A stretch of DNA of 32,000 nt from Alkalilimnicola ehrlichii MLHE-1 (GTDB lineage: Bacteria; Pseudomonadota; Gammaproteobacteria; Nitrococcales; Halorhodospiraceae). Positions 6,450 through 32,000 of this stretch are shown here, in pieces; the first letter of the stretch is position 1, and each line of letters opens with the position of its first letter. Position numbers and translations under genes: made by a program. The stretch lies in assembly GCF_000014785.1 (NCBI RefSeq), contig NC_008340.1:90001-122000 (forward strand). The letters are read 5' to 3'. Below the pieces are notes generated by a model, which was not told where the DNA came from, did not search any database, and was given only the letters and a program-made list of their open reading frames with translations.

Positions 6450-6484
6450 TATAGCGGCTGTTACCGCATAGGCCTGCCCCTTGC

Positions 6485-7528
6485 ATGGATACTCTGACTC
6501 ACGCCATCAGCGGCGCCGTGGCCGCCCGGGCCCTGCCGGCCAGCCGCAGGGCGGCCGCGCCCAGCCTGAGGGAGCGCACCTGGGCCGGCTTTGTCGCCGG
6601 GGCCTCCCCGGACATCGACTTCCTGCTCCGGGTGCTGGACCCGCTGGTCTACCTCAACCTGCACCGCGGGGTCACCCACTCCTTGCTGTTGCTGCCCCTC
6701 TGGGCTGCGCTGCTCGCGGTGGTCTTTGCCCGGGTGGCGCCCCGGCTCGGTGGTGGCCGTTATGGCTGGCGGGCCTGGTACGCGGCGGCGGCGGTGGCCC
6801 TGCTGGTGCACATCCTTGGCGATCTCATCACCAGCTACGGCACCCAGTTGCTGGCCCCCTTCTCCAGCCACGGCTTCGCCTGGAACACCACGTTCATTAT
6901 CGACCCCTGGTTCTCCGGCCTGCTGCTGGGGGGGCTGATCCTGTCGCTCTACTGGCGCCCGATTCCGATGGCCCGGGTGACCCTGTTGGTGGTGGCGGCG
7001 CTGGTTGCCTTCCAGGCAGTGATGATGCGCCAGGCCCTGGATCAGGGGCAGCGCTATGTGGAGGCACAGGGCCTGGAGCAGGCCGAGGTGCGAGCCTGGC
7101 CGCAACCCTTCTCGCCCTTCAACTGGAAGGTCTCGGTCACCCTGGACCGGGGGCATTACCTCAGCTACCTCAACCTGCGCCAGCGCGGCCCCACGCCGCC
7201 GGCACCGCCTCTGCCCGGTGCCCTGCGGGATCTCTGGGAGGCCTACCGGCCGCTGGACGAGCAGGAGTGGCGCTATTTCCCGCGGTTTGGCGAGGGTGAC
7301 GAGTTTCGACAGGCCGAGGCGGCGTGGTCGGACCCGGCGTTCGCGGACTTCAGGCGCTTTGCCGGGCTGCCGGCGGTGTACCGCGTGCGCGACGACTGCG
7401 TCGCCTTCCAGGACCTGCGCTTCCACCTGCCAGGCCTGCGCACGCCCTTCCGTTATGGGCTTTGCGACGTGGGCGATGACCCCTATCTGGTCCGTTACCA
7501 GGACGGCGAATTTATCCGCATCCGCTGA
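6485..7528 (+). CDS. membrane-bound metal-dependent hydrolase, YdjM/DUF457 family
   Basis: MDTLTHAISGAV start, HRGVTHSLL motif, several TM helices, then a soluble C-terminal domain. Confidence 0.75.
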   Translation: MDTLTHAISGAVAARALPASRRAAAPSLRERTWAGFVAGASPDIDFLLRVLDPLVYLNLHRGVTHSLLLLPLWAALLAVVFARVAPRLGGGRYGWRAWYAAAAVALLVHILGDLITSYGTQLLAPFSSHGFAWNTTFIIDPWFSGLLLGGLILSLYWRPIPMARVTLLVVAALVAFQAVMMRQALDQGQRYVEAQGLEQAEVRAWPQPFSPFNWKVSVTLDRGHYLSYLNLRQRGPTPPAPPLPGALRDLWEAYRPLDEQEWRYFPRFGEGDEFRQAEAAWSDPAFADFRRFAGLPAVYRVRDDCVAFQDLRFHLPGLRTPFRYGLCDVGDDPYLVRYQDGEFIRIR

Positions 7529-7603
7529 CCCGCACGACCGGTCCAAACCGCAGGCCGGGGCCTTGCCAGAAGCGGGCGGACTGGATAACATGAGTCTTCT
7601 CAA

Positions 7604-7677
7604 GCGGGTGTAGTTCAATGGTAGAACATCAGCTTCCCAAGCTGAGAACGTGGGTTCGATTCCCATCACCCGCTCCA
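7604..7677 (+). tRNA. tRNA-Gly (anticodon CCC)
   Basis: Hand-folded cloverleaf. Acceptor GCGGGTG/CACCCGC, D stem GTTC/GAAC, anticodon stem TCAGC/GCTGA with loop TTCCCAA, T arm GTGGG-TTCGATT-CCCAT, discriminator T and encoded CCA. 74 nt. Confidence 0.93.
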
Positions 7678-7740
7678 TCTTCTTTCCCCTCCTCTTGGCC
7701 CCACTCACCATACGCCCGTTAGGGAGACGCTGAATAACCT

Positions 7741-8485
7741 CGTCAGTGCGAGCACAGCCCATCCCACCGTCAGTGCGAGTGCAGCCCATCCCACCGTCAG
7801 TGCGAGTGCAGCCCACCCCAACCTTTACTGCGAGCGCGGCCACCCCATCGTCACTGCGAGGAGGCGAAGCCGACGCGGCAGTCCACCGCCCTGGATCGCC
7901 GCGGCGCTGCGCGCCTCGCGATGACGGGGCCAAGGGCACGCGCCGCCACGGCTCCAAGTTGCTACGAGGCGAGGGCCCGCCCCACGTCACTGCGAAGCGA
8001 GGGCCCGCCCCCACGTCACTGCGAGGAGCGAAGCGACGTGGCAGTCTACCGCTCTGGATCGCCACGGGCCTTCGGCCCTCTTGAAGAACTTGACTGTGCC
8101 GGAAGCGGCAGGTCGCCCCCACCGTCACTGCGAGGAGGCGAAGCCGACGTGGCAGTCCTCCGCCCTGGATCGCCGCGGCGCTGCGCGCCTCGCGATGACG
8201 GGGTGAAGGGTACGTGCCGCCACGGCCCCACGCCGCTGTGAGCCGAGGGTTCGCCCCCTCGTCACGGCGAGCGCGGCCCCAACCCCCTCGTCAATGCGAG
8301 CGCGGCCCCAACCCCACCGTCACGGCGAGCGGGGACCCGCCCCCACTGTCACTGCGAGGAGGCGAAGCCGACGTGGCAGTCTACCGCGCTGGATCGCCAC
8401 GGGCCTTCGGCCCTCGCGATGACGAGGGTAAAGTCGTCGGCCCCGGCGATGGCTGGGGAAAGGGGTTGGCCCTGGCGATGACGGG
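7741..8485. repeat. mosaic cluster A of hairpin-forming intergenic repeats (about 78-nt units plus about 27-nt half-units)
   Basis: Full units at 7849-7926, 8014-8080 (right arm truncated), 8123-8200 and 8347-8424. Each is CGTCACTGCGAGGAGGCGAAGCCGACGTGGC, a loop, then GCCACGGGCCTTCGGCCCTCGCGATGACG or a variant. Tandem 27-nt half-units (cgtcagtgcgag..cagcccatcccac) lie at 7741-7848, with more half-units between the full units. No convincing CDS. Confidence 0.9.
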
Positions 8486-16131: not shown

Positions 16132-16240
16132 GGCGGGCTCCCTGAAAGGGCGATGGCGGTGCCAGCCATCCTTTTCCAAAGCCTAGCAGAACCCGCACTG
16201 CTATCCTCATCGGAGACGTTCTCCCTTGAGGATCGCCCCG

Positions 16241-17095
16241 ATGCCCACTGCTGTCCGTTGTCACCACCCCGTCCCGCGAGAGCCTGCTGGTCGTCGGTGC
16301 CGTGCCCAGGGCTGGGCCCGCTGGCTGCTGCTGGCGGCCGTCGCGCTGGCCCTGCTGTTGGTGCTGTTGCTGGTGCCGCGGCAGGCACAGTCGGAGCGCC
16401 TGCCGGATACCGTGGAGCGGGTGGAACCGGCCATCGTCAGCGTGGCGACCCACCAGCCCGCCCGCAGCCCGCGGCTGCGCCATCTGGGCACCGGCTTTGC
16501 GGTGGCGGACGGGCGGTTGGTGGCGACCAACCTGCATGTGTTGCCCGATGTCCTGGACCGTGAGAACCAGGAGCGGCTGGTGGTGGTCACCGGCAGCGGC
16601 CGCAATACCGAGGTGCGTTCCGCCGAGCGGGTGGCCGCCTCGCAGACCCACGACCTGGCGCTGCTGCGGATCTCCGGGACTCCGCTGCCGGCGCTTTCAC
16701 TGGGCGATTCCGACGCGGTGCGGACCGGGGAGCGGTTGGCCTTTACCGGGTTCCCCATCGGCATGATTCTGGGCATGTATCCGGCCACCCACCGGGCCTC
16801 GGTGTCGGCGCGTACCCCCATGGCGTTGCCCGCCGGCCACAGCCGCCAACTGGACGAGCGCCGGGTGGCCCAGTTGCGGCGCAACCCGCCCATGGTCTTT
16901 CAGCTAGACGGCACCGCCTACCCGGGCAACAGCGGCAGCCCGCTGTTCCGCATCGACAGCGGCGAGGTGGTGGGCATCATCAACCAGGTGTTCGTGCAGG
17001 GCGGGCGCGAGGCGGCGGTGGGCAGCCCCAGCGGGATTAGCTACGCCGTGCCGTCGGGGCAGTTGCGGGCGTTGATCGAGGGGCATCGGGATTGA
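16241..17095 (+). CDS. trypsin-like (S1 family) serine protease with N-terminal membrane anchor
   Basis: Catalytic triad context: GTGFAV..LVATNLHV (His), HDLALLRI (Asp), GNSGSPLF (Ser). Hydrophobic anchor WLLLAAVALALLLVLLLV. ATG 16241 is preferred over the track's TTG 16226. Confidence 0.85.
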   Translation: MPTAVRCHHPVPREPAGRRCRAQGWARWLLLAAVALALLLVLLLVPRQAQSERLPDTVERVEPAIVSVATHQPARSPRLRHLGTGFAVADGRLVATNLHVLPDVLDRENQERLVVVTGSGRNTEVRSAERVAASQTHDLALLRISGTPLPALSLGDSDAVRTGERLAFTGFPIGMILGMYPATHRASVSARTPMALPAGHSRQLDERRVAQLRRNPPMVFQLDGTAYPGNSGSPLFRIDSGEVVGIINQVFVQGGREAAVGSPSGISYAVPSGQLRALIEGHRD

Positions 17096-17206: not shown

Positions 17207-17222
17207 TGGCAATAAACTTGCT
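17207..17222 (+). promoter_or_regulatory. candidate sigma-54 (RpoN) -24/-12 promoter TGGCAATAAACTTGCT
   Basis: Matches TGGCACG-N4-TTGCW with exact GG-N10-GC spacing. It sits in an AT-rich intergenic region about 50 nt upstream of the ATG of the PEP-CTERM gene at 17272. Confidence 0.6.
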
Positions 17223-17271
17223 AGATGGAGGTTAAATCGACACGGGCGCGTTACTGGGAGACGGCGCAAGC

Positions 17272-17970
17272 ATGAGAAACCTTAGAACTTACTTGGCGGG
17301 CTGCGTCCTGATCCTGGGCTCATCGGTGGTGTCTGCGGGCCCGATCACGTGGGAGCCCGCGCAAGACACTACCGACCCGTTTGATGTGTTCAGTGCAGGG
17401 TCGACGGTCGAGGCCATCAATGCATCGACCGAAAGCTCGGGGACGGTGACCATCAATGGGGTGACGTTCACCAACAGGAATGACCTGTTGGGAAACTCCT
17501 TCGGAAATGCCCTTGATGGAAACACCTCCGGCGACCCTTCGTACGATCCGTTCTTGAACACGTTTAATTTTGGTGGGGGGGCTTCGACGTCGATCAATAT
17601 TGCCGACGGCCTCTTGTCGTTGGGTGGATCCTACCTTGTGCAGGTATGGTTCACGGACCTGCGTGAGCAGTTTAATGACCGGGTCATGACCTTTGGCGAC
17701 GGACAAGGCAATACCCAGGATCTCGAGGCGTTGGGTGCGGGTCTGGGCCAGTTTGCCATCGGGCGGTTCAGTGCGACGGGCACATCACAGGAACTGTCGC
17801 TGGCTGCGAACGGCTTCAGCAACGCCCACATCACCGGTTATCAGGTGCGAGAGATACCGGAACCCGGTACGCTCCTGCTGTTGGCCTTGGGGCTGGTCGG
17901 GTTGGGTGTCGCGAGTGTCCGTCGGAAGGCGGTGCGTCTGACAGCGGAGCGGCGGCCACTGACGGCGTAG
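17272..17970 (+). CDS. PEP-CTERM sorting-domain protein
   Basis: Signal peptide (LAGCVLILGSSVVSAGP). C-terminal IPEPGTLLLLALGLVGLGVASVRRK, meaning a PEP motif, a TM helix and a basic cluster. GC is visibly lower than in the flanking genes. Confidence 0.85.
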   Translation: MRNLRTYLAGCVLILGSSVVSAGPITWEPAQDTTDPFDVFSAGSTVEAINASTESSGTVTINGVTFTNRNDLLGNSFGNALDGNTSGDPSYDPFLNTFNFGGGASTSINIADGLLSLGGSYLVQVWFTDLREQFNDRVMTFGDGQGNTQDLEALGAGLGQFAIGRFSATGTSQELSLAANGFSNAHITGYQVREIPEPGTLLLLALGLVGLGVASVRRKAVRLTAERRPLTA

Positions 17971-19154: not shown

Positions 19155-20594
19155 CTAACGCCGGCCGTAGGTGTCCTCGAAGCGGACGATGTCGTCTTCC
19201 TGCAGATAGGGCCCGGTCTGGATCTCGATGATCTGCAGCGGGATTCGGCCCGGGTTCTCCAGCCGGTGCGGGCGGGTCTTGGGGATGTAGGTGGACTGGT
19301 TCTCCTCCAGGTAGATGGTCTCCTCGCCGTTGACGATGCGCGCGGTGCCGGCGATGACCACCCAGTGCTCGGAGCGGTGGTAGTGCATCTGCAGTGACAG
19401 CTGCCCGCCGGGTTTCACCACGATGCGCTTGATCTTGTACCGGTGGCCCTCCTCCAGGGTGGTGTAGCTGCCCCAGGGGCGGGCCACGGTGAGGTGGGTC
19501 TCGGTGAGCTCGCGGTGCTCCTCGCGCACCCGCGCGACCATCTGCTTGAGCTCGGCCAGTCGGCTGCGCGGGCAGACCAGGGTGGCGTCCCGGGTCTGCA
19601 CCAGGGCCAGATCCTCAACCCCGTAGGCGGCGATCAGGCCGCTGTCGTCGCTCCAGAGCAGGTTGTTGCGGCTGTCCTCGGCCAGTACCGTGCCCTGACA
19701 GACGTTGCCGTCCGGGTCCTTGCTGCGTTGCTGATAAAGCGCCTCCCAACTGCCCAGGTCATTCCAGCCCAGCTCCGCCGGCACCACCGCCACCCGGTCG
19801 GCGTGCTCCACCAGCCCGTAGTCGATAGAGGTGTTGGGCAGTTCGGCGTAGGCCTCGGCGGTGGGGGGCGCCCCGGCGGCGGCCATGGCGGTGACCGCCT
19901 CGGCCAGGGCCGGCTGGTGGCGGGCCAGCAGATCCATGAACCGGTCCGCGCGGAAGACGAACATGCCGCCGTTCCAGTAGTAGCCCCCCTCCTCCAAGAA
20001 GCGCTCGGCCGTGGCCCGGTCCGGCTTTTCCACGAAGCGGCTGACCTCTTCCACGCCCTCCATCAGCGGGCGGGCGGCCTGGATGTAGCCGTAACCGGTG
20101 GCCGGCTCGGTGGGGCGGATGCCGAACAGCACCAAGTGGCCCGCTTCGGCGGCGGGTTCCGCCGCCCGCCAGGCGCGGTGGAAGTCCTCGACCCGGTTGA
20201 TGACATGGTCCGATGAGAACACCCCCACCACGGCCTCCGGGTCGTGCCGCACGATAGCCGCCACCGCCCAGGCGATGGCGGGCAGGGTGTTGCGCCCGGC
20301 GGGCTCCGCGAGCACCTGATCTGCCAGTGCCGGGGCCACGGCGTGCAACTGGCCCATGACCTCGAAACGATGGTCCTGGTGGGTCACGGTGGTCACCCGG
20401 TCCGCGCTCACCAGGGGCAGCAGACGGCGGGCGGTCTGCTGGAGCAGCGACTCGTCGCCGTCCAGCGCCAGCAACTGCTTGGGCATGGTGCTGCGCGAGA
20501 GCGGCCAGAGCCGGGTGCCGGAGCCGCCGGCGAGGATGATGGCGTGGCGGTGGACCGGCGGTTGGTCGTCGGCGGGGCTGTGCAGCGTGTTCAT
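19155..20594 (-). CDS. manC: mannose-1-phosphate guanylyltransferase / mannose-6-phosphate isomerase (type II PMI-GMP)
   Basis: In-frame ATG 20594 (MNTLHSPADDQPPVHRHAIILAGGSGTRLWPLSR...). Nucleotidyltransferase G-loop and C-terminal cupin (RPWGSYTTL...SLQMHYHRSEHWVV). The track ORF extends to 20798 but overlaps the upstream gene. Confidence 0.92.
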   Translation of the reverse strand: MNTLHSPADDQPPVHRHAIILAGGSGTRLWPLSRSTMPKQLLALDGDESLLQQTARRLLPLVSADRVTTVTHQDHRFEVMGQLHAVAPALADQVLAEPAGRNTLPAIAWAVAAIVRHDPEAVVGVFSSDHVINRVEDFHRAWRAAEPAAEAGHLVLFGIRPTEPATGYGYIQAARPLMEGVEEVSRFVEKPDRATAERFLEEGGYYWNGGMFVFRADRFMDLLARHQPALAEAVTAMAAAGAPPTAEAYAELPNTSIDYGLVEHADRVAVVPAELGWNDLGSWEALYQQRSKDPDGNVCQGTVLAEDSRNNLLWSDDSGLIAAYGVEDLALVQTRDATLVCPRSRLAELKQMVARVREEHRELTETHLTVARPWGSYTTLEEGHRYKIKRIVVKPGGQLSLQMHYHRSEHWVVIAGTARIVNGEETIYLEENQSTYIPKTRPHRLENPGRIPLQIIEIQTGPYLQEDDIVRFEDTYGRR

Positions 20595-20647: not shown

Positions 20648-21748
20648 CTAGGCGTGGGCCTCGGGGGCCGCCATTCGTCTCTTGATGGCCTTGCGGGTGA
20701 GGTGGGGTACCAGCAGGCGCAAGGGCATGCGCAGGTAGTGCGACCTTACGTAAAGTATCCATCGGCAGGTCGGGGAAAGCCAATCGTCGCATTGCCAATG
20801 GTGGGGCGCGAGGCCGCGCCGGAACAGCCCGTCCATGAGCGGGCGCAGTGGCACGCCCGGGCCGGCTGCGGCGAGCCCCTCGTTGACGGTCGCCGGCACC
20901 GGGGTGTTCAGAAAGTGGGCCGCATACCGCAGGCCGTAGAACAGCGGGCGCGCCAGGTCCATCTCATGGGCCCGGTCCACCAGCGCGGGCCAGAAGCCGT
21001 CGACGTGGCGGTGGAAATGGCGGACCAGGTCATCCAGATCGACCAGATCCCGCAGGCCGTTCTCCAACTCGCCGTCGTGGAAGAGGTGGGTCGCGCTGTG
21101 CAGCACCATGTCGGTGGGGGCCAGCACATAGAGGTTTTGCCAGCCCGGGAGCGGCGTGGCGGCGGCGAATAGCTTGTCCGGGTCCGGGTGCAATCTCGCC
21201 GTCGGCGGCAGGACGGTGTGGTGGACGTCCAGCACGCTCTTTCGCCGGATGTGGGTCAGCGGGGGCAGTTCATGCATCCAGCGCCGGTAGTAGGTCTGGT
21301 CGTATTCGTCGTGGCCCTGCGCCAGCCAGCCGCGGGTGAACAGGACGTGTTCGGTGGTCGCCAGTGCCGGGCGTGGGACCATGATGTCCAGGTCCGCGAA
21401 CAGCCGGCCGCGGGCGCTGGGCAGGCCGGCCATCAGGTAGGCCGCCCCCTTGAGAATCACCACCGGCGCCTTGCGCGCGGCCAGCGCCTCATGGACCTGT
21501 TCCACCTCCCAGCGCATCCGGTGGTGTTGTTCGGCGGCTACCCGGCCCGCCGCCTCCAGGTGGCGCCGCGGTCGGGCGGGCACCCGGTCGAACAGATCCC
21601 GCTCCTGTAACAGCGCGTGCAGGCGTGCCTCCAGTGAGGCGACCCGGGCCACCCGCAGCAGGGCGTCCCAATCGCCCAGGCGCAGTTCGCCGACGGAGGC
21701 GGGGTCGGTCAGTGCGGTCAGCAGGTGCTCCAGCGGGCGCGGCATCAT
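20648..21748 (-). CDS. NTP_transf_5-type 'uncharacterised nucleotidyltransferase' family protein
   Basis: 366 aa with VVILKGAAY...GRLFADLDIMV (NTase GS...DxD-like core) and a helical C-terminal region. Its start ATGATG overlaps the stop of the upstream kinase-like gene (ATGA). Confidence 0.8.
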   Translation of the reverse strand: MMPRPLEHLLTALTDPASVGELRLGDWDALLRVARVASLEARLHALLQERDLFDRVPARPRRHLEAAGRVAAEQHHRMRWEVEQVHEALAARKAPVVILKGAAYLMAGLPSARGRLFADLDIMVPRPALATTEHVLFTRGWLAQGHDEYDQTYYRRWMHELPPLTHIRRKSVLDVHHTVLPPTARLHPDPDKLFAAATPLPGWQNLYVLAPTDMVLHSATHLFHDGELENGLRDLVDLDDLVRHFHRHVDGFWPALVDRAHEMDLARPLFYGLRYAAHFLNTPVPATVNEGLAAAGPGVPLRPLMDGLFRRGLAPHHWQCDDWLSPTCRWILYVRSHYLRMPLRLLVPHLTRKAIKRRMAAPEAHA

Positions 21749-22650
21749 GGGGCGTCCGTCAACGCGGTCAGGGCGTGCAGGCTCCGGTCCAGATCAGCGT
21801 AGTCCAACTCGAAGCAGGCGCAGCGGTCGATCAGGTCCGCGGCCGCCTCGAAGCCCTGGCCGCCCAGCACGCTGTAGTTGAAGGCCGCGTCGGCCAGGGT
21901 GAGCAGTGAATGGGCCTTGGGCATCGGCCTCAGGGCGTCCTTGCCCTCCGGTGCGAACCGCGGAAAGACCAGCCAGGCCGGCTGGGCGGGGACCTGGCTG
22001 CGGGCGATGCTCTCCTCCGGGGGCTTCAGGTGGGCCACCGTCCCTTTGGTCGTGTCGTGGGTGGACCGGCCCAGCACCGCCTGCGGAAAGCGTTCGCGTA
22101 TCAGTGGGATGGCCTGGTTCTTCAGGCTGACCGGGCGTGGCAGGGGGCTGAGCATGCCGTCCTCCAGGGACAGGAGGGCAAACTCGTCCGACAGCAGCCG
22201 CCAGCCCGACAGCGCCAGTGCGGCGGCCAGCGTGCTCTTGCCCGCCCCCGGGGCGCCCGGGAGGATCAGCGCCCGGTCGTCCCGGGCGACGACAGCGGCG
22301 TGGATCATCAGGTAGTGGTGGCCGTGCTGGGCGATGCACCAATTCAGGCCCCATTCGAACAGCGGAAAGGCCTGGGCGAGGGGCAGCGGCTTGAAGGGGG
22401 AGCTGCCGTCCAGATAAAAGCGGGCCTGGGGCCGCCAGACGCCGCGCACCCCCGGGGCCCGGTCCAGGCGCACGTGAAAGTCGCAAAAGGGCGTGTCCGC
22501 CGGCAGGAGCTGCTCCGCATAGTGCAGCCCGATACTCTCGGCCATGGCCGGCAGCCGGGAACGCAGTCGCACGATAAAGGGGCCGATCTCCAGGGCCGCG
22601 CCCTGCGCGCGCAGCATATGGGGCAGATCGGGGGCAACGGCACCGGGCAC
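21745..22650 (-). CDS. HprK-related P-loop kinase ('HprK-related kinase A' type)
   Basis: Central LILPGAPGAGKSTLAAALALSGWRLLSDEF resembles the HPr kinase/phosphorylase C-terminal P-loop. GTG start 22650 lies 3 nt after the PqqD-like stop. An ATG 11 codons downstream is an alternative start. Confidence 0.8.
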   Translation of the reverse strand: MPGAVAPDLPHMLRAQGAALEIGPFIVRLRSRLPAMAESIGLHYAEQLLPADTPFCDFHVRLDRAPGVRGVWRPQARFYLDGSSPFKPLPLAQAFPLFEWGLNWCIAQHGHHYLMIHAAVVARDDRALILPGAPGAGKSTLAAALALSGWRLLSDEFALLSLEDGMLSPLPRPVSLKNQAIPLIRERFPQAVLGRSTHDTTKGTVAHLKPPEESIARSQVPAQPAWLVFPRFAPEGKDALRPMPKAHSLLTLADAAFNYSVLGGQGFEAAADLIDRCACFELDYADLDRSLHALTALTDAP

Positions 22651-22653
22651 GGG

Positions 22654-22965
22654 TTATTTCCGCTCCTTCACCAACTGCCGGCGGCGCAGCTCGGCGAGAA
22701 GCTGCTCGGTAAAGGCCTCCGCATCGGCCACGTCCTGGCCCCAGTCCCGGTCACATTTCTCGATGAGTTCCATCTCTGTCCTCGGTGCCTGGTGCAGCCA
22801 TTGGAAGAGCGCGCCCGCCGCCCCCTCCAGCAAGTGGGTCTCGCCGGAGCGGTGGTCGTAGACCACCCAACGTTGTTCCCATTGACGGATGTGTGCCGCC
22901 GGCAGGGTAGCGGCCTGCCAACAGCGTTGGGTCGTTGCAGGGTTGGGGTCAGGGGCTGATGCCAC
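22654..22965 (-). CDS. PqqD-family (RiPP-recognition-element-like) small protein
   Basis: 103 aa. W..RWVVYDHRSGETHLLEGAAGALFQWL...ELIEK...FTEQLLAELRRRQLV matches the PqqD winged-helix pattern. GTG start with GAGG 7 nt upstream. Confidence 0.75.
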   Translation of the reverse strand: MASAPDPNPATTQRCWQAATLPAAHIRQWEQRWVVYDHRSGETHLLEGAAGALFQWLHQAPRTEMELIEKCDRDWGQDVADAEAFTEQLLAELRRRQLVKERK

Positions 22966-22986
22966 TCCGTTGCCTCACGCCAAGTC

Positions 22987-23006
22987 GCCCCGCTGAACAG
23001 CGGGGC
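22987..23006 (-). promoter_or_regulatory. intercistronic GC-rich stem-loop (gccccgct-gaac-agcggggc), no U-tract
   Basis: An 8-9 bp perfect palindrome in the 84-nt gap between the Cys-rich gene stop (23050) and the PqqD-like start (22965). It could be an attenuator or an mRNA-stability element. Confidence 0.5.
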
Positions 23007-23049
23007 TACGGTTGGATCGGTGCGTCAATCTGGCCGTGGCCGGGGGACC

Positions 23050-23814
23050 TCAATCGTCCTCTCCGTCCGGGTCACTCTCATCGTAGTACGATTGCGACGT
23101 CTGTACCGGAATGCACTGGCCCAGCTCGTTCTTGGTGTAGCCATCCTCGCAGTCACCCCAACGATCGATGGGGCAGCCGCGGTTGTTCATGTTGTCGAAG
23201 ACATCCTTGACCAGCTCCGGATCGGTATCCGCATCCTCGCGGGCCATGTAATAGGCTTCCTTGACGTCCTCGACCGTGGCCCCGTAATCGACCGAATTGC
23301 AGGCGGCATTCAACAGGGCTCCGACGGCGTGCCAGTCCAGCGAACCCTTGCAGCCTCCTTGGCCTCCGCTTTGCAGCACCTCCATCAGGGTGGCATAGGA
23401 GGGGGCGCAGGTGGGCCCGGTATGGAAGACGTCCGAGAAGCGGGTGCCGGCGCCAAAGGCATCCCAGACGGCGCAGGTGCCGTCCTCGTTCCGCTCGATG
23501 CACTGCCCGGGGTCGTAGCCGGTGCAACCCCACGCCTCGGTGTTGTTCTTCCAGAACCCCGGTGTGCAGCCCTGGCCGGTGGTGCATTCGTGGTCGATGT
23601 TGGAGACATTGGCGGAGAAGATCTCGCCGGACAGCGAGCACCGGCCCTGCGAGCCCCAGACGGGCCGGGCGGACAGAGAGAGGACCAGCGGCGCGGCCAG
23701 GCCGGCCTGGGTCAAGCGCCGGCGCGCCTTGTTCGGACGCTCGCCGGCGCAACCGCATCCCGCCTTGGGCGGGCCCTGGTCCTGGTTGGTGGAATCGTCC
23801 TTCCGCTTGCCCAT
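23050..23814 (-). CDS. exported cysteine-rich protein of unknown function (254 aa, 14 Cys)
   Basis: Strong GC3 coding bias. Polar N-terminal extension MGKRKDDSTNQDQGPPKAGCGCAGERPNKA, then a Tat/Sec-like signal RRRLTQAGLAAPLVLSLSARPVWG. The mature part has 12 Cys (for example GCTPGFWKNN, WGCTGYDPGQC) and an acidic tail YYDESDPDGEDD. Confidence 0.75.
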   Translation of the reverse strand: MGKRKDDSTNQDQGPPKAGCGCAGERPNKARRRLTQAGLAAPLVLSLSARPVWGSQGRCSLSGEIFSANVSNIDHECTTGQGCTPGFWKNNTEAWGCTGYDPGQCIERNEDGTCAVWDAFGAGTRFSDVFHTGPTCAPSYATLMEVLQSGGQGGCKGSLDWHAVGALLNAACNSVDYGATVEDVKEAYYMAREDADTDPELVKDVFDNMNNRGCPIDRWGDCEDGYTKNELGQCIPVQTSQSYYDESDPDGEDD

Positions 23815-23938
23815 TGCTGTCTAACTCCGCGCAATACACGCTGTCTTTAAGCCACCGGAGGCGCCCCGGATGTCGCGGGTGCGCGATTCGGGTAAGGCGG
23901 TTGTGGCTGACACCCGCATCCCATTGTGTACTATCTCT

Positions 23939-23954
23939 TGCAAAATCCGCGCCA
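23939..23954 (-). promoter_or_regulatory. candidate sigma-54 (RpoN) -24/-12 promoter TGGCGCGGATTTTGCA (minus strand)
   Basis: The reverse complement of 23939-23954 matches TGGCACG-N4-TTGCA at 15 of the 12+4 positions that matter, with exact GG-N10-GC spacing. It lies about 125 nt upstream of the Cys-rich gene ATG, in a 330-nt non-coding gap. Confidence 0.6.
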
Positions 23955-29859: not shown

Positions 29860-30092
29860 GTGTGAGGGGATGATTGCATTGGCGTCCTGAACTGTCGGAA
29901 TCGCTTACACCCAATACCGGGCCGCGTTTCGCGCTGTTGCAGCCATTGTAGCCGGACCGCAGAGCGGTACTGACCGCGGCTAGTCTCCGCAGCCAATAGC
30001 CACAACGATAAGTCGGAAATGTTTACAGTTCGGTATCCAATACCATGGGGCAAGTCGGGCATAAGCTTGATTGTGCCCGTTTTTCAGGGTGT

Positions 30093-30108
30093 CGGAACGC
30101 ATCTTGCC
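30093..30108 (+). promoter_or_regulatory. candidate sigma-54 -24/-12 promoter cGGaACGcatcTTGCc
   Basis: Correct GG-N10-GC spacing with ACG and TTGC conserved. The leader would be about 40 nt before ATG 30159, the same geometry as the promoter at 17207. It is weaker than the other two. Confidence 0.45.
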
Positions 30109-30158
30109 CCCTCAGTTGTCGAATCGAATCGGTTTGTTGCAGTACGGGGGAAGCAAGC

Positions 30159-30977
30159 ATGCGTTTCACAACCACCTGCGCCGCGGTAGCCCTGGTCAGC
30201 GGTTCGTTGATGGGCTTGCCCGCCCACGCTACGGTGATCACCTACGAGTGGTCGGCGGCGGACATGATAAGCAACGTCTTTGTCGACGGAGAGGATGGCA
30301 CCAAGGCCGCTGAGAACGGGCTGTTCGCCGGGGCCACCCGCCTGCGGGACGGGAGCAGTACCGGTGAGGGCGCAGCCCGGACCTACGTGGAGAGTCAGCA
30401 CGGTCAGTTCATAGAGCGTTACAACTTTCTGGCGCGAGAGGGCGAGACCCTGACCAGCTTCAATCTCTGGGGACTGGATGGGCGCGGCGTACAGTGGGGT
30501 GAGGACTACAAGCCCCTGGCTTGGGTCGATGTGACAGCACCCGATGGCTGGAGCACCGGCTTCTTTGATGCGGGGCCCGATGGCCTGGGCTGGTTCCAGA
30601 ATACCAATCCGGATCTGGGCAACTACCTGGCTTACAACACCCCGCTGTTCCCCTGGTTTTCGGCCCCCGAGGATGGAGGGCTTCCCCTGGTCGATGACGG
30701 GACCTTTGACTCCCTGATGTTCTCGGCCACCATCGAGTTTGATCCTGACGACGCCTTTTGGGGCGAGGACACGTTTGGGGCGCCGAACGATATCAACTCC
30801 GTGCTGACCGCCTATTTCGGCGGCAATCTCTCCAGCGGGGATATGCTGGAGGGGAACATGGCGCTACGTACGGCCGTGCCCGAGCCCGGGACCTGGCTGC
30901 TGATGGGCATGGGGCTGTTGGCCATGGGTTGGATGGTCCGGCGACGCCGGCCATCGGCGGGCGCTCAGGGCGCTTGA
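30159..30977 (+). CDS. PEP-CTERM sorting-domain protein
   Basis: In-frame ATG 30159 (MRFTTTCAAVALVSGSLMGLPAHA signal peptide) with GGGGGAAG upstream. C-terminal VPEPGTWLLMGMGLLAMGWMVRRRR. Confidence 0.85.
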   Translation: MRFTTTCAAVALVSGSLMGLPAHATVITYEWSAADMISNVFVDGEDGTKAAENGLFAGATRLRDGSSTGEGAARTYVESQHGQFIERYNFLAREGETLTSFNLWGLDGRGVQWGEDYKPLAWVDVTAPDGWSTGFFDAGPDGLGWFQNTNPDLGNYLAYNTPLFPWFSAPEDGGLPLVDDGTFDSLMFSATIEFDPDDAFWGEDTFGAPNDINSVLTAYFGGNLSSGDMLEGNMALRTAVPEPGTWLLMGMGLLAMGWMVRRRRPSAGAQGA

Positions 30978-31113
30978 TTCCGCCCATTGCCAGGGCCGGT
31001 GCACAGTGACGTATAGCCTGGTCGGATGCAGCGGACAGATTCCCGACACATACTAGGGGGCCAGGCTATACCGATCACGTCCGCTTTAGGACGGAAACGA
31101 CACGAGGCCCTGA

Positions 31114-32000
31114 ATGCCCAGTAAGCGACAGTGTGACATCCTCTGCATCGTGGGCGCCCGCCCGAACTTCATGAAGATCGCCCCGGTCATGCGGGCGTTG
31201 CAGGCGCAGGGCATCCCGGCGCGGCTGGTGCACACCGGACAGCACTACGATGCGGAGATGAACGAGCGCTTCTTCGCCGACCTGGGCATCCCCCACCCGG
31301 ACATCAACCTGGAGGTGGGCTCCGCCAGCCACGCCGTGCAGACGGCGGAGGTCATGCGTCGCTTCGAGCCGGTGGTGGACGAGCTGCAGCCGCGGGCGGT
31401 GCTGGTGGTGGGGGATGTCAACTCCACCATCGCCTGTGCCCTGGTCGCGGCCAAGAAAGGGGTCGGTGTCATCCACGTGGAGGCGGGCCTGCGCAGCTAC
31501 GACCGCGCCATGCCCGAGGAGATCAACCGGGTGCTCACCGACCAGATCTCCGACCTGCTCTTCACCACCGAGCGCCACGCCGAGGCCAACCTGGCCCGCG
31601 AGGGGATCGATACCGGGCGGGTGCACTTTGTGGGCAACGTGATGATCGATACCTTGCGCCACAACCTGGAACGGGCCGTGCCGTGGCAGGAGGCCCTTGC
31701 CGCCGCGGGTGTGGACCTGACCCCCTTCCAGCGCGCCGGGGGCTACGGCGCGGTTACCCTGCACCGGCCGTCGAACGTGGATGAGCCCGCGGTGTTGCGC
31801 CGGGTGACCGAGACCCTGATCGGGGTCTCGCGGGACCTGCCGCTGGTGTTTCCGGTGCATCCGCGCACCCGAGCCCGGCTTGAGGCCTTCGGCCTGCTGC
31901 CGGCCCTGGCGTCCGAGCCCCGCATCGCCCTCCTGCCGCCGGCGGGCTACCTGGAGATGCTCGGGCTGATGCGCGACGCCCGGGTGGTGCTCACCGACTC
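31114..32000 (+). CDS. wecB: UDP-N-acetylglucosamine 2-epimerase, non-hydrolysing (3' partial)
   Basis: Not in the ORF track because it runs off the window. My own translation from ATG 31114 reads MPSKRQCDILCIVGARPNFMKIAPVMRALQ...LVHTGQHYD...VVGDVNST...HVEAGLRSYDRAMPEEINR...TLHRPSNVD. It is antisense to the spurious track ORF 31075..31860. Confidence 0.92.
   Translation, partial: MPSKRQCDILCIVGARPNFMKIAPVMRALQAQGIPARLVHTGQHYDAEMNERFFADLGIPHPDINLEVGSASHAVQTAEVMRRFEPVVDELQPRAVLVVGDVNSTIACALVAAKKGVGVIHVEAGLRSYDRAMPEEINRVLTDQISDLLFTTERHAEANLAREGIDTGRVHFVGNVMIDTLRHNLERAVPWQEALAAAGVDLTPFQRAGGYGAVTLHRPSNVDEPAVLRRVTETLIGVSRDLPLVFPVHPRTRARLEAFGLLPALASEPRIALLPPAGYLEMLGLMRDARVVLTD

Follow-up and report, generated by a model that had tools for sequence, protein, structure and literature searches.

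On what do a PqqD-like peptide chaperone, an HprK-like kinase and a nucleotidyltransferase act when no short precursor peptide is encoded beside them? The question is raised by a locus of Alkalilimnicola ehrlichii MLHE-1 lying within a stretch of 32,000 nt, analysed at its full length and referred to here as the window, in which the three genes of the 'HPr-rel-A system' follow a gene for a 254-aa protein, all four on the minus strand (Table 1). What is new is a near-universal, unannotated fourth component, of which this 254-aa protein is the local member, defined beside a named trio whose curated description comprises three. The protein is very probably the functional partner of the trio, and the locus is best described as a cassette of four genes. 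The likeliest mechanism, which we hold with middling confidence and by analogy with lasso-peptide tailoring, would be that the partner is modified on a Ser-rich tail in the cytoplasm by the PqqD-guided kinase and transferase, and then exported.

The trio itself is readily identified. An earlier reading of this DNA, made from the letters alone (hereafter the sequence-only reading), had assigned the three proteins to PqqD-like, HprK-like and NTP_transf_5 families and mentioned the HPr-rel-A label, and profile hidden Markov model searches agree: all three exceed curated cut-offs, and the genes are genuine members of the system, in canonical order and beside PEP-CTERM genes. The PqqD-like protein additionally matches PF05402 at 25.5 bits, while the kinase carries the GAPGAGKST Walker A motif noticed in that reading and is also covered by a newer Pfam model, PF27840, named ScmC. 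The co-directional, tight arrangement that had been described is equally borne out by the open reading frame (ORF) listing, with a spacer of 84 nt between the partner and PqqD-like genes, a gap of 3 nt between the PqqD-like and kinase genes (TAA ccc GTG, read directly in the sequence) and a 4-nt ATGA overlap of kinase stop and transferase start, deduced from the ORF coordinates. Literature searches returned no experimental paper for the trio, none on 'HprK-related kinase A', on exosortases together with HPr kinase or on NTP_transf_5, for which the one PF14907 paper listed proved unrelated, and nothing relevant on PEP-CTERM with PqqD; nor do the curated libraries hold a substrate model.

The evidence for a fourth component comes from comparison of genomes. 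Twenty-two kinase homologues were aligned and the alignment was used to retrieve 80 loci from one-genome-per-species contigs, these being the best-scoring of at least 594 confirmed matches; they derive from beta- and gammaproteobacteria, two alphaproteobacterial metagenome-assembled genomes (MAGs), one Nitrospirota MAG and Malonomonas, and their ORFs were called crudely. A PqqD gene is present in 79 of the 80 and a transferase gene, always directly after the kinase, in 74. In 41 loci, single-sequence phmmer searches with the 254-aa protein detected a weak homologue beside the trio. When a profile was iterated on the six-frame ORFs of the same 80 loci the number rose to 75, directly adjacent and on the same strand in each, and although the database is small, drift of the profile is unlikely because the matches are positionally consistent: 66 lie upstream of PqqD and nine just downstream of the transferase, sometimes in two copies. 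Four of the five loci without a partner (L005, L006, L041 and L042) end too near the cassette to tell, leaving L045 as the one genuine exception. Reciprocal look-ups starting from partner proteins agree in three cases out of three (Sulfuricella denitrificans and two MAGs), where the partner gene is each time followed directly by a small ORF, a ScmC/HprK_A-type kinase gene and an NTP_transf_5 gene. The proposal that a secreted partner might be conserved beside the trio across genomes has thus found strong support. The family is large: an exhaustive profile search gave 4359 cluster representatives at E<=1e-3, of which 1650 reach E<=1e-10. Its named members are all 'hypothetical protein' and lack a precomputed Pfam domain, the window protein itself has no match in Pfam or NCBIfam, and no curated model covers the family. 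In two loci (L035, 9654-15032; L072, 9690-15099) PqqD-kinase-transferase and the partner gene are followed by another kinase-transferase pair that has no PqqD of its own, a tandem duplication of the two enzyme genes on either side of a single partner gene.

No shorter candidate competes with the partner. The sequence-only reading had seen no obvious precursor gene, and indeed no small ORF is conserved upstream of or between the genes; a hidden short precursor or upstream ORF was sought among small-ORF clusters conserved across loci and was rejected, since all of these proved to be out-of-frame shadows inside known genes, and the upstream-ORF peptide that had been put forward as a candidate has no conserved counterpart elsewhere. 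The 5' untranslated region of the partner gene contains, at 23847-23924 (-), a mini-ORF of 25 aa, MGCGCQPQPPYPNRAPATSGAPPVA, which was found in no other locus; its start, MGCGC, resembles the GCGC in the N-terminus of the partner. The partner is taken as the target because of its adjacency in 75 of 80 loci, the reciprocal agreement and this lack of a competing conserved short ORF. It might instead be a co-regulated secreted protein of a PEP-CTERM regulon, with the real substrate of the trio elsewhere, among the PEP-CTERM proteins or in an unlinked peptide. We consider this very unlikely: PEP-CTERM genes do flank the cassette here and in other genomes, and the one at 17272 has its own sigma-54-like site, but no PEP-CTERM family is conserved beside the trio as the partner is, multiple partner copies occur in some loci, as they do for genes of precursors of peptides made by the ribosome and altered after translation (RiPPs), and in a variant cassette considered below PqqD overlaps the start of its partner by 4 nt (4967 vs 4970).

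Within the partner, conservation is concentrated near the N-terminus. Judged from the alignments, its conserved hallmarks are a twin-arginine-type leader and a Ser-rich tail, and not the richness in Cys by which it had been characterised: members carry 2-16 Cys, and the high count is peculiar to the Ectothiorhodospiraceae branch. The N-terminus, polar and acidic over some 20-40 residues, is followed by the leader motif S-R-R-[RK]-[LF]-[TA]-[KR]-x-G-L and an uncharged stretch of ~14 residues (median 14) ending T-L-A-S-R-P-V-L-G; the tail, beginning 5-15 residues past the leader, reads C-x-x-S-G-x-x-S-G-N-x-S and then C-x-G-x-[ST]-P-G-Y-W, and the C-terminal domain holds a conserved H-x-V-A-A-L-L-N-A helix. 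The window protein has, in the same order, a leader (residues 1-54) with a polar acidic n-region, R31-R32-R33-L, a short hydrophobic stretch and S-A-R-P-V-W-G, a tail at residues 59-71 (C59-S-L-S62-G-E-I-F-S67-A-N-V-S71) and a folded domain marked by GCTPGFWKN, HAVGALLNA and NNRGCP. Conservation was computed, in window numbering, on 58 partner sequences of <60% mutual identity, among which R32 and S62 are invariant (58/58), R31, C59 and S67 are present in 57 and S71 in 54, and C77 and G82 are near-invariant; the strict pattern RR...C..S..S..S recurs in 116 of 145 further top representatives, most of the others being minor variants. Mean pairwise identity over the 58 is highest in the Ser-rich segment (55%), followed by the leader (45%), and is 20-21% in the folded domain. 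An AlphaFold2 model of the partner, built with a 46-sequence alignment, places residues 80-245 at a predicted local distance difference test (pLDDT) score >90 and residues 1-79 in predicted disorder, the tail at ~45-55; neither Foldseek (best E 1.8) nor a profile search of PDB sequences found a PDB relative of the folded domain.

That leader and tail are better conserved than the folded domain is a second reason for regarding the partner as target, and the distribution of the domain supplies a third. Other lineages have homologues of the folded domain that carry an ordinary signal peptide and lack the Ser tail, and two of these with a plain Sec-type signal and no RR/Ser N-terminus, P0112 and P0053, have no trio nearby; none was seen near P0051 and P0054 either, on contigs of <3.1 kb. 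The distance between leader and tail fits the leader-core geometry of enzymes guided by a RiPP recognition element (RRE), and a conserved leader beside a conserved candidate core is the pattern that an RRE-guided substrate would show, though the partner is a full-size protein. One apparent family member, P0383 (2981 aa, 26 matched stretches), was rejected as a false positive: its tandem repeat of ~100 aa, containing SRRDVASGGVAIAGAVVTLTL, mimics the leader, a chance resemblance to the leader part of the profile and a sign that a search may pick up false positives through the leader segment by itself.

The enzymes of the trio appear equipped for the chemistry in question. Kinase residues at least 95% conserved comprise the Walker A stretch P134-T140, D155/E156, R172, K177, N178, T200, K202 and G203, and those of the transferase (64 sequences) comprise K100-G101, G114-R115-x-F117-x-D119-x-D121 and several His, in which a Pol-beta-type signature, G-[GS] ... 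D-x-D, is present as K100-G101 ... D119-x-D121. The set of an RRE protein, an HprK-like kinase and an uncharacterised nucleotidyltransferase is shared with the systems that tailor the lasso peptides paeninodin and pseudomycoidin (PadeK or PsmK, with PsmN), and the metal-binding acidic pairs correspond, D155/E156 of the window to PsmK D158/D159 and D119/D121 to PsmN D134/D136. PsmN is presumably a member of PF14907. The precedent of an HprK-type kinase with a nucleoside triphosphate (NTP) transferase, invoked in the sequence-only reading, is documented: on pseudomycoidin the HprK-family PsmK, for which D158/D159 are essential, phosphorylates the C-terminal Ser of the precursor, and the NTP transferase PsmN, for which D134/D136 are essential, is needed for the appearance of one or two hexoses on the phosphate (PMC6993621).

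The locus also differs from lasso systems. As had been stated, family scans of the window ORFs found no lasso cyclase, lasso protease or radical-SAM enzyme; an Asn-synthase-like lasso cyclase is absent, and a transglutaminase-like leader protease (B2) without a match, among the window ORFs and the annotated recurrent neighbours of the 80 loci. The window likewise has no ABC exporter or short precursor, and its candidate substrate is an exported protein, of a kind 200-250 aa long, with internal Ser near the N-terminus. Modification of a phospho-Ser by a subsequent cap is thus chemistry of a kind known from lasso peptides, while the type of substrate, the missing RiPP core enzymes, the sigma-54 control and the exosortase context differ. 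That the trio is no more than a functionless, decayed remnant of a lasso-peptide cluster might be read from the fact that RRE, HprK-type kinase and NTP transferase form the tailoring set of some such clusters, but the lack of cyclase, protease and short precursor in the window and among recurrent neighbours is joined by more than 5000 kinase homologues, conserved catalytic residues and a gene order stable across classes of Proteobacteria, and the conservation data effectively refute it.

Set out step by step, the mechanism would begin with a sigma-54 promoter driving a pre-protein of ~200-250 aa that comprises the leader, a short disordered Cys/Ser tail and a folded extracytoplasmic domain. 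The PqqD-family chaperone would bind the leader or the leader-tail junction, the HprK-like kinase would phosphorylate one or more of S62, S67 and S71, and the NTP_transf_5 enzyme would add a hexose or nucleotidyl group onto the phosphate, in the manner of PsmK and PsmN on pseudomycoidin. The modified partner would then be exported, probably by the twin-arginine translocation (Tat) pathway, with the leader cut after V-x-G/A, and the mature protein, its N-terminal tail decorated, may serve the envelope or matrix within an exopolysaccharide programme of the XrtA/PEP-CTERM kind that is governed by a PrsK/PrsR-type sigma-54 regulator. In favour of this course of events, the catalytic residues of kinase and transferase are at least 95% conserved and match the essential residues of PsmK and PsmN. 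A more specific version of these events is possible but tentative: the twin-arginine leader would double as a RiPP-style recognition leader, PqqD would hold the pre-protein in the way of a Tat proofreading chaperone, and a phosphodiester-linked decoration (phospho-hexose or phospho-nucleotide) would be placed on the Ser tail before export into the exosortase/PEP-CTERM matrix.

Several observations weigh against modification of the Ser tail, and the first concerns the kinase. Its AlphaFold2 model is confident (pLDDT 93.5) and shares a P-loop core and overall fold with both HprK/P and ATP-dependent phosphoenolpyruvate (PEP) carboxykinase, but Foldseek places it nearer the latter (E~1e-6, template modelling score <=0.60) than HprK/P (~1e-3), so that a non-protein substrate is possible. 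By sequence, its alignment with HprK/P of the PDB is limited to about 60 residues of the P-loop core (E 0.003), the NCBIfam scan gave no match to the HprK/P equivalog TIGR00679 and there is no HPr context; for the NTP_transf_5 and PqqD proteins nothing was found among PDB sequences. The main rival, unlikely in our estimation, is that the kinase and transferase would activate a small molecule or a glycan- or lipid-linked intermediate for exopolysaccharide, converting a head group first to a phospho- and next to a nucleotide-linked form; the partner would then be a final acceptor, carrier or binding protein instead of the substrate of the kinase. PEP carboxykinase is itself a small-molecule kinase, the kinase of the variant cassette weakly resembles the phosphonate kinase FomB, PF14907 has been reported beside PEP mutase and thymidylate kinase in a phosphonate cluster, and both sugar-nucleotide genes (manC here, UDP-glucose dehydrogenase and GalE elsewhere) and exopolysaccharide genes often lie nearby; PsmN, according to its authors, may make a substrate for a host glycosyltransferase (PMC6993621). 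Against this stand a PqqD-family chaperone with no obvious small-molecule role in 79 of the 80 loci, the fact that the strongest constraint on the partner falls on a disordered peptide segment beside a leader, and the lack of conservation of the sugar genes as partners, manC occurring in two loci of 80.

The variant, or sister, cassette supplies further counter-evidence. It has the order PqqD-partner-kinase-transferase (L081 4602-7714, L082 34-3613 and L085 6001-8748), with a PqqD protein at 32 bits on TIGR04353 and an HprK_A-like kinase at 150 bits, both below cut-off, and with NTP_transf_5 present; its neighbours include a Wzz/GNVR/ParA-type chain-length regulator, VanZ and a choice-of-anchor-L protein, and in L082 the transferase is followed by another PqqD gene. 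The partners P0079 and P0070, which sit in this type of cassette, possess the RR leader and have no Ser tail, so that the tail cannot be a universal target; since the domain keeps its association with HprK/ScmC-type proteins in tail-less cassettes, that association is older than the tail. A related arrangement surrounds P0072, which has a short signal and no PqqD nearby (L088 52-6489) and stands beside Wzy_C, two tandem ScmC/HprK-like proteins and an Asn-synthase-type amidotransferase. The best NCBIfam likeness of this amidotransferase is to the lasso cyclase model (183 bits, cut-off 525) and to the XrtA-system amidotransferase.

Three further points bear on substrate and leader, and the sampling supplies another. 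The characterised lasso kinases target a C-terminal and not an internal Ser (PMC6993621; review PMC8498205), and in the bufferins the signal peptide is dispensable for modification (PMC11626156). The leader is Tat-like in its RR motif, weakly hydrophobic stretch, R/K before P-V-L-G and V-x-[GA], but the Tat models PF10518 (TAT_signal) and TIGR01409 miss six leaders at E<=10 in Pfam and NCBIfam searches, short models whose weak matches the HMMER filters may hide; the Tat reading therefore rests on resemblance of motifs. The 80 loci, being the best-scoring, leave out the most divergent systems. From the bufferins in particular arises the thought that the trio modifies the partner, with the leader serving as export signal only and recognition proceeding via the tail or folded domain. 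The leader has every formal feature of export (RR motif, ~14-residue uncharged stretch, V-x-G/A), and the sister cassette retains leader and domain and not tail. However, an ordinary signal peptide does not keep 45% identity across bacterial orders beside a mature domain at 20%, no such conservation is seen in domain homologues with ordinary signals, and PqqD presence tracks the long RR leader in the few cases checked, and we judge this variant decidedly unlikely.

Tail modification guided by PqqD, for its part, has parallels outside the lasso peptides. In RRE-guided RiPP systems at large, a PqqD domain (here PF05402 and TIGR04353) is likewise encoded with modifying enzymes. Bufferins, products of MNIO/DUF2063 systems, are exported RiPP-like small folded proteins that are modified in the cytoplasm with an RRE-type partner (PMC11626156). 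They offer one comparable case of an exported protein with a general export signal and such a partner, though theirs is an oxidase making thiooxazoles with a Sec signal, as opposed to a twin-arginine-type leader here. Redox enzyme maturation proteins such as TorD, DmsD and NapD are chaperones encoded beside their client that bind its twin-arginine leader until maturation is done. This is the role proposed for PqqD; the fold is unrelated, however, and their clients receive redox cofactors and not phospho-type modifications. The SynChlorMet ScmC/ScmD and HprK-related kinase B cassettes (TIGR04249, TIGR04248 and TIGR04355) also pair an HprK/ScmC-like P-loop protein with a PqqD-like protein, with weak cross-matches to the proteins studied here, but hold radical-SAM/SPASM or ATP-grasp enzymes and other precursors.

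Regulation ties the partner to sigma-54. The sequence-only reading had placed a near-consensus RpoN promoter ahead of the operon, and this site, TGGCGCGGATTTTGCA at 23954-23939 (-), with 10 of 11 specified bases, is real and conserved; it is, however, the promoter of the partner gene, not of the trio. Sites with at most two mismatches are as numerous in the window (17) as expected by chance (17.1), so the promoter gains significance only through conservation across species. Among 78 cases, 48 have a GG-N10-GC site scoring at least 9/11 at 80-250 nt upstream of the partner gene, whereas two controls gave 5 and 6; in the same interval sites of at least 10/11 number 25 of 78 against 2 and 0. Partner genes placed downstream of the trio retain their site, and the trio there lacks one of similar quality, which assigns the promoter to the partner. 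A second near-consensus site, TGGCAATAAACTTGCT at 17207-17222 (+), has one mismatch and precedes the PEP-CTERM gene at 17272 by 50 nt, which suggests that this gene and that of the partner are under common RpoN control; in the 200 nt upstream of the other PEP-CTERM gene (30045) there is no such site. The GC hairpin that had been noticed in the spacer is likewise real, with an 8-bp stem, but is local and not conserved. It has no U-tract or Rfam match and is not repeated in the window, the 84-nt spacer folds no better than shuffles (z = -0.95), and the idea of a conserved attenuator was rejected, as the best 40-nt hairpin after the partner averages -15.5 vs -16.8 kcal/mol in coding controls.

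Table 1. Features of the cassette and its surroundings in the window
Feature	Position	Strand	Evidence
Sigma-54 (-24/-12) promoter of partner gene, TGGCGCGGATTTTGCA	23939..23954	-	10/11 specified consensus bases
Partner (candidate client) protein gene, 254 aa, unannotated family	23050..23814	-	Homologue beside trio in 75/80 loci
Partner leader, residues 1-54	23653..23814	-	Conservation, motif statistics, predicted disorder
Ser-rich tail, residues 59-71, candidate modification site	23602..23640	-	Conservation, pLDDT ~45-55
Partner folded domain, residues 80-245	23080..23577	-	AlphaFold2 pLDDT >90
GC hairpin in 84-nt spacer, 8-bp stem, without U-tract	22987..23006	-	Local feature
'HPr-rel-A system PqqD family peptide chaperone' (TIGR04353), 103 aa	22654..22965	-	80 bits vs cut-off 35
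'HprK-related kinase A' (TIGR04352), PEPCK/HprK-type P-loop protein, 301 aa	21745..22650	-	427.2 bits vs trusted cut-off 200
NTP_transf_5 nucleotidyltransferase-fold protein (PF14907), 366 aa	20648..21748	-	217 bits vs cut-off 31
manC (GDP-mannose pyrophosphorylase/isomerase), local neighbour	19155..20594	-	TIGR01479, 553 bits
PEP-CTERM protein gene (17272-17970) with own sigma-54-like site (17207-17222)	17207..17970	+	PF07589, TIGR02595
Second PEP-CTERM protein gene	30045..30977	+	TIGR02595 27.7 bits (cut-off 16); PF07589
Trypsin-like serine protease, HtrA-type without PDZ domain	16226..17095	+	PF13365, 90 bits
VanZ + Wzy_C (O-antigen-ligase-like) membrane protein, 1122 aa	26491..29859	-	PF04892, PF04932
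261-aa protein without family match	31075..31860	-	Homologues near cassette in 9/80 loci

The surroundings of the cassette connect it with exosortase biology, as had been proposed, and the tie is real: two PEP-CTERM genes lie in the window and XrtA-system markers recur across loci. PrsK (TIGR02916) occurs near the cassette in 23 of the 80 loci, a sigma-54-dependent response regulator in 14, TIGR03015/TIGR03016 in 13, the TIGR03013 glycosyltransferase in 12, UDP-glucose dehydrogenase in 11 and GalE in nine; where at least 6 kb of downstream flank is available, 30 of 54 loci have an XrtA-system marker (PrsK, TIGR03013 or TIGR03015/16) within 10 kb. The manC gene that had been noted after the transferase is present, but as a local neighbour; its raw ORF (start 20798) is over-extended, the true start probably lying near 20594. 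Along with a SAM methyltransferase, a beta-helix protein and a 262-aa protein, each found in only 0-5 of the 80 loci, it was rejected as a component of the system.

Other neighbours recur more often. In 18 of 80 loci a homologue of the PDZ-less trypsin/HtrA-like protease is present within 10 kb, frequently abutting the partner gene or following the transferase (L012 7098-7961, L036 7955-8746, L016 5211-5987), and could be the processing protease for the partner. The VanZ and Wzy_C protein is an unusually large fusion, with VanZ N-terminal, and has full-length homologues near the cassette in nine of 80 loci; VanZ or Wzy_C also stands beside variant cassettes. The homologues of the 261-aa protein are counted within 10 kb, and a GAF-domain protein of ~269 aa directly follows the transferase in nine Nitrotoga/Gallionellaceae-type loci (for example L052 12249-13058 and L091 10028-10837). 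Housekeeping genes fill the left half of the window, where a tRNA-Gly(CCC) at 7604-7677 (+), identified by ARAGORN and by Rfam at 74 bits, lies inside an opposite-strand ORF of 555 aa (6461-8128, -) that has no Pfam or NCBIfam match and is probably spurious.

The trio is widespread: kinase homologues number more than 5000, and there are at least 594 matches among species-representative genomes. The definition of a partner with a candidate site (C59, S62, S67 and S71) and a conserved sigma-54 promoter makes this function-unknown system experimentally approachable. Were the proposed mechanism true, RRE-guided chemistry would reach from peptides to a full-size exported protein, and a PqqD-type chaperone would be seen at work on a twin-arginine leader; in its more specific version, leader-guided covalent modification of exported proteins would form a new class, present in at least about 600 sequenced species. 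The poorly understood programme by which environmental Proteobacteria with exosortase/PEP-CTERM systems form flocs and biofilms, among them sulfur oxidisers, methanotrophs, nitrifiers and floc formers resembling Zoogloea, would then gain a modified protein component.

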